A stretch of 64,000 nucleotides of DNA from an uncultured Gemmatimonadota bacterium. Lineage in GTDB: Bacteria; JAAXHH01. The DNA is taken from NCBI GenBank assembly GCA_951812955.1, contig OX638340.1, forward strand, positions 1,664,001 to 1,728,000, written 5' to 3'. This document shows positions 2,785 to 23,550 of the stretch, piece after piece; position 1 is the stretch's first letter, and each line of letters opens with the position of its first letter. A program made the translations under genes and the position numbers. The notes under the pieces were generated by a model. That model worked only from the letters and a program-made list of their open reading frames with translations, did no database searches and was not told the origin of the DNA.

Positions 2785-4272
2785 ATGGCGCACATAGCCT
2801 CTACCGTTTCTCACAGTCTTAAGGAATACCGCCTTTTGCCGCGCCTTACTCAGGCCGATGCAAATGCCCAGCTCGTGTCGCTGGAGACGCGCCTTTGCCG
2901 GCACGGAGACGGCTACGTCACGCTGCGCACACCCTTTCTCAGCGCGGCCATGCAGGCGGTTACCAGCGTGGAACTGGCCATCGCAATGGCCCAGTTGGGT
3001 GGCATGGGCGTGTTCGCCGTGAGCCAGACTGTTGAAGAGCAGTGCACCAGGATCGACGCGGTGAAACGGTTCAAGGCCGGGTTCCAGACGGATATCGTGA
3101 CGCTGTCGCCGCAGCAGTCCATTGGTGAGGTGATCGGGATCATGAACGATACCGGTTATCACACCTTCCCCGTGACGGATACCGGCGTATTCCACGGCAA
3201 GCTGGTCGGCGTGATCACGGACAAGGACTTCGACGAACGGTACGACCAGGACATGCGCGTGGGCGACCGCATGAAGACGGACGTGCAGACCGGTGCCGCG
3301 GAAGACGACCTGAAGACCGCCAACACGCGAATGATCGAATACGGCCGCGGGTTCCTGCCCATGGTTTCCTCCGAAGGGACGCTGGTATCGGTCGTGTTCA
3401 AGCGGGACCTCGACAAGCACATCCGCCATCCCCACTCCACGGAAGACGCGCAAAAGCGCCTAGTGGTCGGCGCCGCCGTATCGACCCATCCGGAGGACCG
3501 CGAACGGGTGGAGGCGCTGATCGAACACCAGGCAGACGTGATCGTCATCGACGCCTCCGACGGCCACACGGAATACCAGGGCGAGACGCTGAAATGGATC
3601 AAGTCCCATTATGACATCCCCGTAATCGCGGGGAACGTGGTGACGCGGGACGGCTTCGACTACCTGGCCGGCAGCGGGGCGGACGCCGTGAAGATCGGCA
3701 TGGGCATCGCGTCCGGCTGCACGACGCAGATGGTGAAGGCCACCGGTCGCGGACAGGCTACCGCCATCCAGGAAGTCGCCGCGGCCCGGGACGAATGGGC
3801 GCGGACCACGGGCGACTACCTTCCACTCGTGGGCGATGGGAGCATACAGGGACCGGCGGATATGCTCATCGCCCTGTCCCTGGGCGCCGACACACTCATG
3901 ATGGGCAACCTCCTGGCGCGGTTTACCGAGAGCCATGGCGAACTCGTCCGAAACGCAGCCGGGGACCTGGTCAAGGAATACTGGATGGAGGGCAGCCGGA
4001 AGGCCTTCAACAACCGGCGCTACGCCCAGCTCGCAAGTACCTTCTTCGAGGAAGGCATAGTCGGCCAGGTGCCCCACTCGGGGTCGGTCTACGACAAGCT
4101 GCCCATCGTCGTCCAGATGCTTAAATCCGGCATGGCCTCGGCGGGCTGTGCCGACATTGAGGCACTGCACCGGGACGCCATCCTGGAACTGCAGTCCAAC
4201 GTGTCCCTTGAAGACAGCGGCGTGCACGACATGTCCGCCGTCCAGTCCATCCAGGAATTCGGGATTACCTAG
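2785..4272 (+). CDS. IMP dehydrogenase/GMP reductase family protein with a CBS pair
   Basis: TIM-barrel IMPDH-like motifs: the catalytic Cys loop KIGMGIASGCTTQ and GDGSIQGPADMLIALSLGAD. CBS-like region near the N-terminus. 495 aa. Confidence 0.75.
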   Translation: MAHIASTVSHSLKEYRLLPRLTQADANAQLVSLETRLCRHGDGYVTLRTPFLSAAMQAVTSVELAIAMAQLGGMGVFAVSQTVEEQCTRIDAVKRFKAGFQTDIVTLSPQQSIGEVIGIMNDTGYHTFPVTDTGVFHGKLVGVITDKDFDERYDQDMRVGDRMKTDVQTGAAEDDLKTANTRMIEYGRGFLPMVSSEGTLVSVVFKRDLDKHIRHPHSTEDAQKRLVVGAAVSTHPEDRERVEALIEHQADVIVIDASDGHTEYQGETLKWIKSHYDIPVIAGNVVTRDGFDYLAGSGADAVKIGMGIASGCTTQMVKATGRGQATAIQEVAAARDEWARTTGDYLPLVGDGSIQGPADMLIALSLGADTLMMGNLLARFTESHGELVRNAAGDLVKEYWMEGSRKAFNNRRYAQLASTFFEEGIVGQVPHSGSVYDKLPIVVQMLKSGMASAGCADIEALHRDAILELQSNVSLEDSGVHDMSAVQSIQEFGIT

Positions 4273-19829: not shown

Positions 19830-20276
19830 TCACCGCCTGAATCTGCCAGAACCGCCTCGCCCCATTTGCGATGCTTCCTCCACCAGTTTATCGAACGTCT
19901 TCATCGCGTCCGGCGAAAGCACACCCTTCAGGTTCGTCTTGAACTGCTTTTCGTTTTCCTCCAGTTGTTCACGCAGCCATTTCCAGTCTTCGGTCTTCCT
20001 GGCCTGTTCCAGCAGCGCGTCCTTCTGCGTTGATGCTTCCTTGACCATGGCGCGCAGTTGCAGCACCTGATCGTCGGTCGTATCCATGCGTATACTAAGC
20101 ACGTGCCAGATCTGATCGACACGGAAGGTGTTCATCGCTTGCATTTGTTCCAACATGGCACTGTTCTGTCCCCGGCCGCCCATTCGGCCGAATCCGCCTC
20201 GCTGCGCGGCCGCGTCGTTGGCGATATAGGCAATCATCATCAGGCCGATTACGGCAAGGTGAAGACGGTATTTCAT
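19830..20276 (-). CDS. Spy/CpxP-family periplasmic protein (LTXXQ motifs)
   Basis: Signal peptide MKYRLHLAVIGLMMIAYIA. Helical protein with LTXXQ-like motifs. Start is ATG 20276. Confidence 0.6.
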   Translation of the reverse strand: MKYRLHLAVIGLMMIAYIANDAAAQRGGFGRMGGRGQNSAMLEQMQAMNTFRVDQIWHVLSIRMDTTDDQVLQLRAMVKEASTQKDALLEQARKTEDWKWLREQLEENEKQFKTNLKGVLSPDAMKTFDKLVEEASQMGRGGSGRFRR

Positions 20277-20369
20277 GCTATGACTCCCTTCAATTAGATG
20301 CCGCGGTCGGACTGGGGATCCTTCCGCGGCGGGTTCTCGCTCCAATAACCAGCGGTCAGCTAACAATTG

Positions 20370-20424
20370 AACGGTGAACTTTCATTCTAACGGTGGACTT
20401 TCATTCTAACGGTGGACTTCACTT
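20370..20424. repeat. 19-bp tandem repeat x3 (AACGGTGGACTTTCATTCT) between two Spy/CpxP-like genes
   Basis: Seen directly at 20370-20388, 20389-20407 and 20408-20424 (last copy degenerate). Confidence 0.75.
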
Positions 20425-21088
20425 AACGCCGGTCGCGGAATGATTCACGGCCTCCCCGGCGTCCGCGCATCCCGGAATCCCGGCGTCCGTCGCGCCGGTC
20501 GCGGAATGATTCGCGCAGCTCTTCCTGCTGTTCCGGTGTCAGCACGTTCTTGACCTCGGCGCGGAAGACGGCGCCTCGCTCGAACACGCTGCCCTGCGCC
20601 CTGGACACGGCCGCGGCCAGCTCTTTCACTTTTTCCAGGTCCGGGCTGGTCTCGCCCATCAACTCGTTCAGATCAATCCGTGCGAGCCTCGAATCGGCGC
20701 GAAGCTGGACCATGTCCCGTGCATACGCTGAACGCAGCGTGCTGATCTGTTCCTGTTGCTCGTCTGTGAGTTCGATATTGTTCAATGCCCTGCGGGACAG
20801 GTCGTTCCCGCGCGACCGGTCGTTCCCGCGGGACCTGCCGGTACGTGCTGCGTCGTTATCGGCAAGATTGTGGTCCAGGGCGTCGGCGAACTCTCCCGCT
20901 GATCCTGATTCCGCGAACTCGGCAATTAGCTCGAATTCGGATTCTGCCTCGTGCTCCGCGCCCGCCGTGGCGGCTTCGTGATGGCCGCCGCCCTCATTAT
21001 GACTGATCTTTCCCGCAGCATCGAAAGCCCAGGCCAGAACGGCCACGGACAGCGTGCCTGCGAAGATTCCTGTAATCATCTTTTTCAT
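20423..21088 (-). CDS. Spy/CpxP-family periplasmic protein
   Basis: Signal peptide MKKMITGIFAGTLSVAVLAWA. Two clear LTXXQ motifs (LTDEQQEQI, LTPEQQEEL). AGGAG ribosome-binding site. Arg/Asp-rich repetitive tail. Confidence 0.7.
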   Translation of the reverse strand: MKKMITGIFAGTLSVAVLAWAFDAAGKISHNEGGGHHEAATAGAEHEAESEFELIAEFAESGSAGEFADALDHNLADNDAARTGRSRGNDRSRGNDLSRRALNNIELTDEQQEQISTLRSAYARDMVQLRADSRLARIDLNELMGETSPDLEKVKELAAAVSRAQGSVFERGAVFRAEVKNVLTPEQQEELRESFRDRRDGRRDSGMRGRRGGRESFRDRR

Positions 21089-21163
21089 GCTGTAGCTCCT
21101 TTCGAAATACACCCTGACTGAAATGGTCGCGATCTCCGGAGACCGTTTTCGTGCTTCTCTACA

Positions 21164-21195
21164 TGATTAGACTGGAATCGACGGAGTTTTATTCC
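21164..21195 (-). promoter_or_regulatory. putative ECF-sigma-type promoter (GGAATAAAA-N15-TCTAATCA) about 75 nt upstream of the Spy/CpxP-like gene at 20423-21088
   Basis: A minus-strand motif identical to the one upstream of the ECF sigma gene (22851-22882). The -35-like GGAAT and -10-like TCTAA elements are at ECF-typical spacing. Confidence 0.5.
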
Positions 21196-21286
21196 CTTTT
21201 TCTTTCGATTGCCTTTTCTTCTCATCTCCTATACCGGGCCCGGCATCCACAGCCGATCCCCAAGCCCGTTCCGGCGGCTCGAAGTT

Positions 21287-21766
21287 TTAATCGCCGTTGT
21301 TTCTCCGGTGCTCATCCGTCCGATCGTTCTCGTGGCTGCCGGATCCGTTACGTCCACCCGGCCTGTTGCGCTCCCGGCGCAAGTCGGGACCACCTTCCCG
21401 GCGGAACTCACGGGCGCGTTCGCGGCGCTGGCGGATACTCTTTATCCGCTCCAGCTGCCTTTCGGTGAGGATGGGTTCCAGGTCCCGATGCAACGAATCG
21501 ACCAGGGTCTGCATCTCGCGCCGGTGACGCATGTAATTCTCCCGGAATCCCGGTTCGTGTTCACCCACCACTTCCCTGATCCTTCGTATCTGCTCCTGGT
21601 CCGGACGCACCATTCTGACCCAGCGATCCACGAAGCGTTCCCGGGTCATCTGGGGCGGCGGCTGCAGGCGGTCCCGGGCGAAGGCGCCCAGGATCAACGC
21701 ACCGCATACCATGCCGATGATCAGCGTGGCCAGCAGAATGGCCGCGGTCTTCAAGTGGATGTTCAT
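21287..21766 (-). CDS. membrane-anchored periplasmic LTXXQ-motif protein (CpxP/Spy/ZraP-like)
   Basis: N-terminal TM anchor. LTERQLERI and PDQEQIRRI motifs. Its start overlaps the anti-sigma stop by 4 nt, so it sits in an operon with sigma and anti-sigma. Confidence 0.6.
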   Translation of the reverse strand: MNIHLKTAAILLATLIIGMVCGALILGAFARDRLQPPPQMTRERFVDRWVRMVRPDQEQIRRIREVVGEHEPGFRENYMRHRREMQTLVDSLHRDLEPILTERQLERIKSIRQRRERAREFRREGGPDLRRERNRPGGRNGSGSHENDRTDEHRRNNGD

Positions 21767-22227
21767 AATGCGCCCTCCGTTTCCAGTGCGATCCGCGCGT
21801 CATAGAGGTCTTCAGGGTACAGTTCCTCGGTCAGGCCGAAGGAAGCCGTGAAGGAGACGTTTCCGGTCGTGGCCAGGTTGTAGGTCAACAGCAGCATAGC
21901 GGCGATGGACGCGGCCACCGCCATTCTACGGAACATGAGGGACAACGCAGTCTGGAAATCATGCGTTGCTTCGGCGGTGGAATTCGACACCGGACCGGCC
22001 GCGGACTCCGTCGCCAGACGCTCCATGACCCGGTCGGTGAAGCCCGCCTGGAACGCCGGCGACTCCTGGCCTTCGACGAGACCGCGCAGGTGCATCAATC
22101 GTTCGTATTCTTCCCGAAGGCCCTGGTCGCGCAGGAGCGCCGCGTCCAGGCGGCTTCGTTCACCGGGCGTCAGGGACGTATCGAGCGACCGGTACAGCAG
22201 GTCCAGCTCAGACCGTTTCATGGACAA
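21763..22227 (-). CDS. putative anti-sigma factor (single-pass membrane protein)
   Basis: Sits immediately downstream of the ECF sigma gene and overlaps it. About 150 aa with one predicted TM (MAVAASIAAMLLL). Confidence 0.5.
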   Translation of the reverse strand: MSMKRSELDLLYRSLDTSLTPGERSRLDAALLRDQGLREEYERLMHLRGLVEGQESPAFQAGFTDRVMERLATESAAGPVSNSTAEATHDFQTALSLMFRRMAVAASIAAMLLLTYNLATTGNVSFTASFGLTEELYPEDLYDARIALETEGAL

Positions 22228-22798
22228 GCTCCCTGTTGGAGTACAGAAGTAATCGTTTCAGCTTCTCCTGGGACCGCCTCAGACGGGAAAGGACCGTCCC
22301 GACGGGAATCCCCAGGATCTCGGCGGTTTCTTTCGTGGAATAGCCTTCCATCAGCCGGAGTACGATAACGGAACGGAATTCCGGTTTCAGTTCCTGCAGC
22401 GCCTGTTGAATCCGGTCGGCCGTGTCGTCGTATTCGGCGCTGGCCCGGGGGTCCGCATAATCCGCCTCCGGTTCGTTGCGGTCCCTGCCTGGCACGGCGA
22501 GGGGTACAATGATCGATCGGCGGCGACGTTTTCTGAGTTCGGAAATCGCCAGGTTGACGGCGATGCGAGTCAGGTAGGTGCCGACCGACGCCTGACCGCG
22601 GAACCCCCGGAGGCCGCGGTAAAAACGGATGAAGGTCTCCTGCCCCACGTCCTCCGCATCGGCGGTGTTCCCGAGCATGCGGATGACGACGGACGCCACG
22701 CGGTCCTTGTGACGTTCCACCAGTTCCCGGAAGGCATCTTCGCTTCCGTCGCGGGCGGCGTCGACCAATGCGGCGTCTTTCAAGGCGTCTTCCCTCAT
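22208..22798 (-). CDS. RNA polymerase ECF (sigma-70 family) sigma factor
   Basis: Sigma-70 region 2 (ETFIRFYRGLRGF) and region 4 (SVIVLRLMEGYSTKETAEILGIPVGTVLSRLRR). Start set at ATG 22798 (GAGGGAG ribosome-binding site), downstream of the promoter motif. Confidence 0.85.
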   Translation of the reverse strand: MREDALKDAALVDAARDGSEDAFRELVERHKDRVASVVIRMLGNTADAEDVGQETFIRFYRGLRGFRGQASVGTYLTRIAVNLAISELRKRRRRSIIVPLAVPGRDRNEPEADYADPRASAEYDDTADRIQQALQELKPEFRSVIVLRLMEGYSTKETAEILGIPVGTVLSRLRRSQEKLKRLLLYSNRELVHETV

Positions 22799-22850
22799 CC
22801 CGTCTCCCTCGAATAACCGTTTTCCGGTCAAGTCCGATTCCGCTGCCTAC

Positions 22851-22882
22851 TGATTAGACCCCGCCGGCGCCGATTTTATTCC
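22851..22882 (-). promoter_or_regulatory. putative autoregulated ECF promoter (GGAATAAAA-N15-TCTAATCA) upstream of the sigma / anti-sigma / LTXXQ operon
   Basis: Same motif and spacing as at 21164-21195. Confidence 0.5.
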
Positions 22883-22974: not shown

Positions 22975-23550
22975 GTGCGGGGCGTATGTCTAGCAATCGC
23001 GTGGCTGTTCTCGCCGCTGTTGGCCGAAGGTCAGGCAAATGCCCGGTTAGGCGGTGGACCCGGCATGCCTGTCGGCGACCTGTCGGACGGTACAGAAGCT
23101 GCAGGCTCTTCATTTCTGGTCGGCGTGGCTATTCCTGTCGACGTTGGTTACTTCCTGCTGCTTGAGGGTCATCACAGTCGTTTCGGAATTAACGAGGAGG
23201 AGCTTCCAGATACGAATGAGCGGGTGAATCCAGATGCCGACATAAAGCTGACGGGCGGCAACGTGGGACTGCTGATTCAGGGCGTGGCGGATCCCGTGGG
23301 ATTCTATGGCCACGGGGGCGTGGGATGGGCCAGAGGTACGGGTAATGGCGAACGCTCTAACGAGGGTGAAGACGCGCGCTTTAATTCGGGCGATAACTCG
23401 TTCATGTTTGTATTTGGTCTCGGGGTCAACTTGACGGTCAGCGACCACGTGAGGCTGTCACTGGAGGCCAGGTACAACCATGCGTTCGATGTGTTCGATG
23501 AAAGTGCCCGGTGGATACCCGTTACCGCCTCCGTGGTGATTCAACTGTAG
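22975..23550 (+). CDS. outer-membrane beta-barrel protein (OmpW/OmpA-like barrel)
   Basis: GTG start preceded by an AAAGGAGG ribosome-binding site. Signal peptide. Alternating amphipathic beta strands with Gly-rich loops. Confidence 0.55.
   Translation: MRGVCLAIAWLFSPLLAEGQANARLGGGPGMPVGDLSDGTEAAGSSFLVGVAIPVDVGYFLLLEGHHSRFGINEEELPDTNERVNPDADIKLTGGNVGLLIQGVADPVGFYGHGGVGWARGTGNGERSNEGEDARFNSGDNSFMFVFGLGVNLTVSDHVRLSLEARYNHAFDVFDESARWIPVTASVVIQL

Follow-up and report, generated by a model that had tools for sequence, protein, structure and literature searches.

A conserved five-gene ECF sigma factor module with LTXXQ-family proteins and a predicted promoter motif in two copies in an uncultured Gemmatimonadota clade

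Five consecutive genes centred on an extracytoplasmic function (ECF) sigma factor lie on the minus strand of a 64,000-nucleotide stretch of DNA from an uncultured Gemmatimonadota bacterium (assembly GCA_951812955.1, contig OX638340.1, positions 1,664,001 to 1,728,000), referred to here in its full length as the window. The region concerned runs from position 19830 to 22882, with the genes themselves spanning 19830-22798, and encodes, in the order of transcription, the sigma factor, a candidate anti-sigma factor and three further proteins designated P3, P4 and P5 (Table 1). The start of the anti-sigma gene overlaps the end of the sigma gene by 14 nt, and the ATG of P3 overlaps the anti-sigma stop codon by 4 nt (ATGA). 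The sigma gene starts at an ATG preceded by a GAGGGA Shine-Dalgarno sequence, and this arrangement is kept in all 22 sequences that were compared (the window and 21 species-level genomes). The TTG at 22831 that a mechanical list of open reading frames gives is not the start.

All five genes are found in the same order in 21 other species of the same clade of metagenome-assembled genomes (MAGs), from which the P3 homologs come and which the sequence records label Gemmatimonadetes or Latescibacterota. The chromosomal setting is also syntenic across these 21 species, with a flavin-reductase-like gene on one side of the module and an enolase-superfamily gene on the other. The sigma, anti-sigma and P3 genes, which overlap one another, are inherited together from the clade out to relatives with only 30-50% identity.

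Table 1. Genes and predicted regulatory elements of the module, with positions in the window
Feature	Position	Strand	Basis
ECF sigma factor, 196 aa	22208-22798	-	Pfam/TIGR domains
Single-pass anti-sigma candidate, 152 aa	21763-22221	-	Overlap with sigma, co-inheritance, sub-threshold family matches
P3, membrane-anchored shortened LTXXQ-like protein, 159 aa	21287-21766	-	Remote homology
P4, secreted Spy/CpxP/ZraP-like LTXXQ protein, 221 aa	20423-21088	-	Pfam above cut-off
P5, secreted helical protein, 148 aa	19830-20276	-	Weaker profile and fold evidence
Predicted ECF-type promoter of the sigma operon	22851-22882	-	Exact motif, 22/22 conservation, sigma-E resemblance
Second ECF-type promoter motif copy, before P4	21164-21195	-	Exact motif, 22/22 conservation
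16-bp palindrome CGATCTCCGGAGATCG, one mismatch in the window	21130-21145		Near-invariant in 22 sequences
Inverted repeat GCCGCGG-N17-CCGCGGC, P4-P5 spacer	20300-20330	-	Arms invariant in 22 sequences

A preliminary description of this DNA had reported that one two-block motif, GGAATAAAA-N15-TCTAATCA, occurs identically upstream of the sigma operon and upstream of P4. Both copies were recovered with 0 mismatches, and they are the only two sites in the 64 kb even when 3 mismatches are allowed. The chance expectation is 0.05 sites, so that the motif stands above random frequency in the window; two or more matches were obtained in 0 of 100 shuffles, and a looser form of the motif returned the same two sites in the window against 0.00 expected. 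In the window the site reads GATTTT-n-T-GGGAATAAAA ... GGGGTCTAAT; in the copy before the sigma operon, GGAAT(AAAA) is the predicted -35 element and G-TCTAAT the predicted extended -10 element, with the A/T-rich GATTTT upstream. This arrangement resembles E. coli sigma-E promoters in the -35 element (consensus GGAACTTTT), the -10 element (consensus (T/C)GGTCAAAA) and the A/T-rich region upstream.

The core of the motif, GGAAT-N18-GTCTAA, is present before the sigma gene and before P4 in 22/22 sequences with at most one variant base per block. The spacing between the blocks is fixed while the 18-nt spacer diverges, and the distance from the motif to the P4 ATG stays within 107-110 nt. Conservation of this kind around a diverging spacer reads as a classical phylogenetic footprint, and on the best reading the motif behaves like a conserved ECF promoter of both the sigma operon and P4. 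A position weight matrix (PWM) built from the 44 sites, with which the known sites score at least 26 bits, identified no third site in the window at a threshold of 10 bits, and no further one at 14 bits in the 254 kb of the fetched loci L001-L028. No sigma-70-type promoter was detected in the region.

A second conserved element of the P4 leader, the palindrome CGATCTCCGGAGATCG, follows the P4 -10 box at a distance of about 20 nt and has no other copy in the window. An RNA hairpin role was rejected for it, its stability as RNA being unremarkable (z +0.97); it may be an operator at which a dimeric regulator adds a layer of control to the ECF promoter. The palindrome makes it probable that other factors act at this leader, and the pairing of the sigma factor with the motif rests on sequence; both points could be taken to mean that the shared motif is read by another ECF sigma factor or by a DNA-binding regulator encoded elsewhere, and that its adjacency to this sigma gene is incidental. 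However, in its two blocks and their spacing the motif is built like an ECF promoter, and it resembles sigma-E promoters. One of its sites precedes the operon of the sigma factor itself, the usual position for an ECF sigma factor, with autoregulation established experimentally for CnrH and CirY. Moreover, the motif travels with the sigma/anti-sigma/P3 triad into a distant relative with about 50% sigma identity. A reader other than the local sigma factor is thus very improbable. Because the motif is kept before the sigma operon and P4 in all 22 sequences and recurs in that relative (locus L025, described below), an autoregulated sigma factor that would drive a secreted Spy-like gene, as originally proposed, is the best reading.

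By its domain content and its size of about 200 aa, the first gene product is an ECF (group 4) sigma-70 factor. Sigma70_r2 (5.4e-20) and Sigma70_r4_2 (5.6e-14) are its only domains (with Pfam Sigma70_ECF at 7e-7), and it matches the TIGR02937 sigma70-ECF model at 2e-32 (112 bits, cut-off 42.9). The nearest relatives of solved structure are B. subtilis SigW, which is the closest (5wuq_A, E 1e-26), M. tuberculosis SigE, a Pseudomonas sigma-H factor (6in7) and E. coli RpoE (1or7, E 2e-21), and no CnrH structure appears among the PDB matches below 1e-10. The genetic context is likewise of the ECF type, with a co-inherited overlapping gene downstream and the two-block motif upstream of the sigma gene in every sequence of the set.

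The gene that follows plausibly encodes a single-pass anti-sigma factor. Its product is predicted to consist of a cytoplasmic helical N-domain, one transmembrane (TM) segment (about residues 99-121), preceded but not followed by Arg-Arg, and an acidic periplasmic tail of 31 residues (SFGLTEELYPEDLYDARIALETEGAL). This tail is the best-conserved part of the protein, with 18 of 31 positions invariant vs 26 of 75 in the cytoplasmic domain. The protein matches the NF052375 'antisigma' model at 1.8e-7 (31 bits, below the cut-off of 100) and RseA_N at a sub-threshold E of 0.13. The only hint from the PDB is a weak alignment of residues 7-75 with residues 9-77 of the RsiW anti-sigma domain (E 0.21), and searches with the anti-sigma, P3 and P5 profiles otherwise returned noise or matches with E of at least 0.1. 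The ortholog in L025 matches zf-HC2 weakly (E 0.004). Neither the 152-aa protein nor its orthologs contain a cysteine, and it is therefore not a zinc anti-sigma factor (no HxxxCxxC).

P3 has no direct match in Pfam (including PF13801 and PF07813), NCBIfam or the PDB. A profile search of 1.84 billion representative proteins gave 937 clusters, and the P3 family thus comprises about 940 clusters at 50% identity, mostly unannotated. Among 68 sampled relatives, 27 match LTXXQ (best 2e-12) and 18 match Metal_resist. When the P4 profile was compared by hhalign with a 45-sequence single-domain alignment of the P3 family, the two matched with a probability of 93.7% (E 2e-7) over 75 columns spanning both motif positions, whereas reversed-sequence controls gave 6-10%; the alignment pairs LTDEQ of P4 with PDQEQ and LTPEQ with LTERQ. 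The comparison of P3 with P4 became informative only once this deep family alignment had been built, as profile-profile comparison of the clade-level P3, P4 and P5 alignments, which are shallow (effective number of sequences about 1.5-2), was not significant. By remote homology, P3 is a shortened, membrane-anchored LTXXQ-family protein.

The hallmarks of the P3 family are Lys6, Thr14, G18xxxG22 in the TM helix, a basic juxtamembrane cluster, P55-D-x-x-Q59, D90-S91 and L100-T-x-E-Q104. The GxxxG of the TM helix is invariant in 69/69 family members and Lys6 is present in 65/69, and within the clade 30 of the 35 positions of the N-terminus and TM helix are invariant. Three histidines (His70, His81 and His93) are clade-invariant, and His81 is also the majority residue in the wider family (39/69). 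Direct reading of P3 found no HxxxH pair of the CnrX type. Some relatives of P3 (for example P0223, P0133, P0138 and P0157) carry a Met/Gly/Pro-rich linker after the TM helix (GPGQGMMRGPGMGPG...), and in others the same GxxxG anchor is followed by two or three LTXXQ-like domains in tandem.

P4 has a signal peptide, a variable His/acid-rich linker, an LTXXQ domain and an Arg-rich tail. It scores above the Pfam cut-offs for both Metal_resist (2.2e-10, 41.2 bits, cut-off 29.2) and LTXXQ (6.2e-7, 30.5 bits, cut-off 24.3), and its motifs LTDEQ and LTPEQ are conserved in the ortholog alignment. Against the NCBIfam models of Spy (1.8e-8, 34.8 bits, cut-off 174) and the CpxP family (4e-6, 26.7 bits, cut-off 148) it falls far below the equivalog cut-offs, and P4 is therefore a member of the LTXXQ/Metal_resist superfamily and not a Spy or CpxP ortholog. 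The linker carries GHAEA repeats in one species (L008), and its His-rich character is absent in three others (L006, L009 and L013). At 20792-20835 an 18-bp tandem repeat (2.4 copies) inside P4 duplicates the peptide RSRGND; the duplication looks recent, as it was found only in the window and in L001.

P5 also carries a signal peptide, and P3, P4 and P5 have the same Arg/Gly-rich tails. P5 itself has no Pfam or NCBIfam match, and no member of its family matches LTXXQ or Metal_resist. In profile alignment with the P3 family it scores 87.9% (E 3e-6), and it has TTDDQ and LSPDA in place of the two motifs. The AlphaFold model of P5 has a predicted local distance difference test (pLDDT) score of 71, and its best Foldseek match in the PDB is a weak one to CnrXs (E 0.36, probability 0.66, TM-score 0.45), with NccX beside it among the best fold matches. 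Alongside this model it was noted that the motif positions lie at helix N-termini in both predicted models. P5 is thus probably a divergent protein of the LTXXQ/CnrX-like fold, although not securely so.

These results bear on the protein assignments made in the preliminary description. The five-gene module with an ECF sigma factor was borne out, the sigma factor having Sigma70_r2 and Sigma70_r4_2 only, and the overlapping single-TM anti-sigma candidate is plausible from the overlap, the co-inheritance and the sub-threshold family matches. The membrane-anchored LTXXQ protein translationally coupled to it is likewise supported, by the ATGA overlap and the remote homology of P3. Of the three Spy/CpxP-like LTXXQ proteins that had been proposed, P4 qualifies directly and P3 by remote homology, but P5 is only weakly linked to them. 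The treatment of P3 as one of three chaperone-like paralogs has to be revised, in that P3 appears to act with the anti-sigma factor in signalling rather than as a third chaperone paralog, and its periplasmic location is not secure, given the charge bias discussed below.

No promoter motif is conserved before P5. The P4-P5 spacer instead contains the GC-rich inverted repeat GCCGCGG-N17-CCGCGGC, which is unique in the window, ends 10-20 nt before the P5 Shine-Dalgarno sequence in many species and folds as RNA with -23.5 kcal/mol (z -1.7). The unit of its right arm (GACCGCGGCAT) is multiplied 2-4 times in L007, L012, L014 and L018. Because the conserved inverted repeat leaves no room for a separate P5 promoter, P5 is likely to be co-transcribed with P4, perhaps with attenuation at the hairpin. 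The repeat itself could be a partial terminator or attenuator, a stabilising intercistronic hairpin or a binding site. Several other readings of this region were rejected: GGAAG...TCTAAT, which the window has before P5 and which was considered as a third ECF promoter, is not shared by other species and has no PWM score; a sigma-54 reading of the conserved element before P5 fails by eye, because the -12 box is poor and the window lacks the GG of the -24 box; and a REP-like dispersed repeat is excluded for both this element and the P4-leader palindrome by their uniqueness in the 64-kb window. The region contains no Rfam family. The same spacer also contains, at 20370-20419, 2.6 tandem copies of a 19-bp repeat.

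The module extends outside the clade. A metagenome scan with a smaller P3-family alignment yielded 4 loci. In L025, a low-GC metagenomic contig, the sigma factor (52% identity), the anti-sigma factor (35%) and a P3-like protein (37%) are encoded in overlapping reading frames, and downstream of this triad GGAAT-N18-GTCTAAT is followed by a secreted protein that scores above the Metal_resist cut-off. The same motif occurs in L024 just after the P3-like gene. In L028 the triad is followed by a 313-aa LTXXQ protein. In L026/L027 (4596-9336) the triad, with a two-domain P3-like protein, precedes genes for an OEP, a membrane-fusion protein and a MacB-like ATP-binding cassette (ABC) efflux system, an arrangement that recalls cnrYXH-cnrCBA, and GGAAT-N18-GTCTAA was not found at the expected positions there. 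The P3-like gene occupies the same +2 position in L025, L026 and L028. As judged from these loci, the conserved core is the sigma factor, the anti-sigma factor and a membrane-anchored LTXXQ protein, while the output genes vary.

We regard it as fairly probable that the locus is an autoregulated three-component ECF module, made up of sigma factor, anti-sigma factor and P3, whose main local output is the secreted P4, probably together with P5. In the proposed mechanism, the cytoplasmic N-domain of the anti-sigma factor would hold the sigma factor at the membrane. As the 31-residue periplasmic part is only a short, acidic, near-invariant tail without a sensor domain, perception of the signal would be delegated to a partner. 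P3, with an invariant GxxxG helix suited to TM packing and a basic LTXXQ-like domain, could be the partner that shields or stabilises the anti-sigma factor, by analogy with CnrX/CnrY, CpxP/CpxA and RseB/RseA. In the second of these, a basic LTXXQ protein serves as a titratable inhibitor of a membrane sensor. In the third, RseA has a large periplasmic domain that is bound by RseB, whereas the anti-sigma factor here has only its short tail.

A stress ligand, either unfolded envelope proteins or a metal, would then disengage the LTXXQ protein or proteins, and the anti-sigma factor would be inactivated, most plausibly, although this is speculation, by intramembrane proteolysis of the exposed short-tailed protein. 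With its periplasmic part of about 30 residues, the anti-sigma factor is similar to the site-1-cleaved form accepted by site-2 proteases in the RseA/RseP and RsiW/RasP systems, and one may speculate that a bound LTXXQ protein could protect it from such a protease. The freed sigma factor would transcribe its own operon and P4(-P5), and the newly made basic Spy-like proteins would handle the stress and possibly re-silence the system, as in CpxP feedback. The secreted basic proteins P4 and P5 are also possible extra ligands of the anti-sigma tail.

Several points weigh against this account. The promoter assignment is based on sequence resemblance and conservation, and the anti-sigma assignment is weak at the sequence level, with every family match below curated cut-offs. 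P5 has no promoter of its own and is separated from P4 by a conserved GC-rich hairpin, so that co-expression of the two is assumed. The main conflict concerns the P3 family, in which lysine plus arginine amount to 1.7 in the N flank of the TM helix and to 3.8 in the 15 residues that follow the helix. As 62/69 members have the more basic C flank, the positive-inside rule predicts a cytoplasmic domain, at odds with P3 as a periplasmic shield.

This charge bias has led us to consider that P3 is inserted N-out/C-in and acts from inside the cell, as a GxxxG-tethered co-anti-sigma or anti-anti-sigma factor and not as a periplasmic sensor or chaperone. The basic cluster directly after the TM helix fits this orientation, as does the lack of a signal-peptidase-type motif conserved across the P3 family, and the close translational coupling and the invariance of the TM helices are what a stoichiometric complex would show. 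However, the domain is homologous to LTXXQ/Metal_resist domains, and to our knowledge all characterised LTXXQ members (Spy, CpxP, ZraP and CnrX) are periplasmic. Moreover, P4 and P5, which bear signal peptides, share their Arg/Gly-rich tails with P3; the near-invariant acidic tail of the anti-sigma factor needs a periplasmic, probably basic, partner; and Lys6 is retained in the short N-terminal segment of nearly all family members. Given the homology, the shared tails and the partner needed for the acidic tail, a periplasmic domain is more likely than a cytoplasmic one, and action of P3 from inside the cell appears unlikely.

A broader and rather speculative proposal, to which we likewise give little credence, is that the +2 P3 family forms a general 'chaperone-titration' input to ECF sigma factors, in which an LTXXQ protein caps an anti-sigma factor resembling a trimmed RseA. 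The anti-sigma factor would escape intramembrane proteolysis only as long as its acidic tail is capped, until client proteins or metals pull the cap off. In a more radical form of the proposal, the LTXXQ-like domain of P3 would be cytoplasmic, the first of its fold inside the cell, and would act as a co-anti-sigma factor.

The nature of the signal bears on a different alternative, a metal switch of the CnrYXH type in which P3 would be a CnrX-like sensor of a transition metal and P4 and P5 would be ZraP-like periplasmic metal buffers instead of chaperones. P4 scores best against Pfam Metal_resist, the family that is also matched by 18 of the 68 sampled P3 relatives, but 'Metal_resist' is an annotation name rather than a tested function. 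The His-rich linker of P4, with its GHAEA repeats in L008, would suit a metal buffer, although it is absent in L006, L009 and L013; similarly, P3 has its conserved His70, His81 and His93 but lacks a pair like His42/His46 of CnrX. The best PDB folds for P5 are CnrXs and NccX, whereas the sigma factor is nearest to the SigW, SigE and RpoE types, with CnrH absent from its structural matches at the threshold given above, and the match of the anti-sigma factor is a weak RsiW-like one. The triad of L026 precedes OEP, membrane-fusion and ABC efflux genes, but no efflux pump adjoins the module in the clade, and the gene order also differs, with the anti-sigma gene after the sigma gene here and CnrY at -2 of CnrH. 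The groups ECF281, ECF290 and ECF291 have been linked to heavy-metal stress (PMC7826278). On this balance a metal switch is a possible but doubtful explanation of the locus, and the autoregulated module with P3 as the anti-sigma partner is preferred.

The preliminary description had called the arrangement unusual, a claim that does not hold, as the genomic contexts of ECF281 and ECF290, CnrYXH and cirYZ-spy are already of the same design. In ECF281 and ECF290, an anti-sigma factor at +1 is followed by a heavy-metal-resistance (PF13801) protein at +2; ECF281 has been described with a zinc-finger anti-sigma factor, and ECF291 contains CnrH (Casas-Pastor et al. 2021, PMC7826278). Compared by genomic context, the order of sigma, anti-sigma and +2 gene matches that of the present module and of L025, L026 and L028. 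However, the anti-sigma factor here has no cysteine, P3 of the clade is not recognised by PF13801 or PF07813, and the triad is followed by another secreted LTXXQ gene, which has a promoter copy to itself, and by P5.

In CnrYXH of Cupriavidus metallidurans, an ECF sigma factor is controlled by an anti-sigma factor together with a membrane-anchored protein of the Metal_resist/LTXXQ fold, and CnrH transcribes from cnrYp. The module shares with this system a small single-pass protein as candidate anti-sigma factor, a membrane-anchored LTXXQ-fold protein as putative partner and probable autoregulation from a predicted ECF promoter, and CnrXs is the best fold match of P5. It differs in its gene order and in its anti-sigma factor, which is longer and weakly RsiW-like, and its output would be Spy-like proteins and not a resistance-nodulation-division (RND) efflux pump. 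The metal ligands of CnrX are His42, His46, Glu63 and His119 (and Met123), and P3 lacks the HxxxH pair among them. The N-terminus of CnrX is basic, whereas the charge bias of P3 is not that of an N-in membrane anchor.

The likeness to E. coli sigma-E lies in the form of the promoter and in the relationship of the sigma factor to RpoE, and that to SigW/RsiW in SigW being the closest solved sigma factor and RsiW the only structural hint for the anti-sigma N-domain. However, RsiW, a zinc anti-sigma factor, has a larger extracytoplasmic domain, the promoter consensus of SigW is different, and we know of no LTXXQ partner for SigW/RsiW. In Phocaeicola vulgatus, cirYZ is co-transcribed with spy, deletion of the anti-sigma gene induces cirY and spy, and the genome has a second paralogous sigma/anti-sigma/spy locus (PMC13114119, 2026). 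This sigma/anti-sigma pair with a Spy-like gene is similar in arrangement to the present module, but it belongs to another phylum, and the Spy protein there has been described as a periplasmic chaperone homologue and not as a TM-anchored GxxxG protein. E. coli uses the two-component systems Bae and Cpx, and not an ECF sigma factor, to express spy and cpxP (PMC13114119), and P4, as noted, is distinct from the Spy and CpxP equivalogs.

Two further features lie at the upstream border of the module. An outer-membrane beta-barrel gene on the plus strand (22975-23550; PF13505, 32 bits, cut-off 28.7) is divergent from the sigma promoter. About 10 of the 21 species have it intact, L003, L007 and L012 retain fragments and the others lack it, so that it is not an obligatory part of the module; the PWM scan found no ECF motif facing it. 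In about half of the species (L005, L006, L007, L009, L010, L013, L014, L018, L019 and L020), the 5' leader of the sigma gene (at ~3850-3960) has an insertion of 70-100 nt between the predicted start site and the sigma Shine-Dalgarno sequence, which the window does not have. This insertion contains the conserved blocks GGCCGC...GCCGGCCGA...GACCATATTGTTCC and could be a leader element or a small open reading frame.

The module is a real, conserved and well-delimited ECF switch for envelope stress (or metal stress), of a design known in other bacteria. Specific to it are a +2 protein missed by current domain models, a second copy of the predicted promoter that would serve a secreted paralog of its own, a third protein that is helical and strongly diverged, and an extremely short conserved anti-sigma tail. 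For an ECF sigma factor of an uncultured MAG clade, it supplies a minimal regulon and a clean promoter motif validated by comparison between species, and it shows that the +2 protein of such modules belongs to a large, mostly unannotated family that co-evolves with the sigma and anti-sigma factors. Apart from these points, it is an ordinary envelope-stress module. As a compact five-gene system, it poses the question of whether proteins of the Spy/CpxP/CnrX fold may be a general sensing input to ECF anti-sigma factors, beyond CnrX and nickel.

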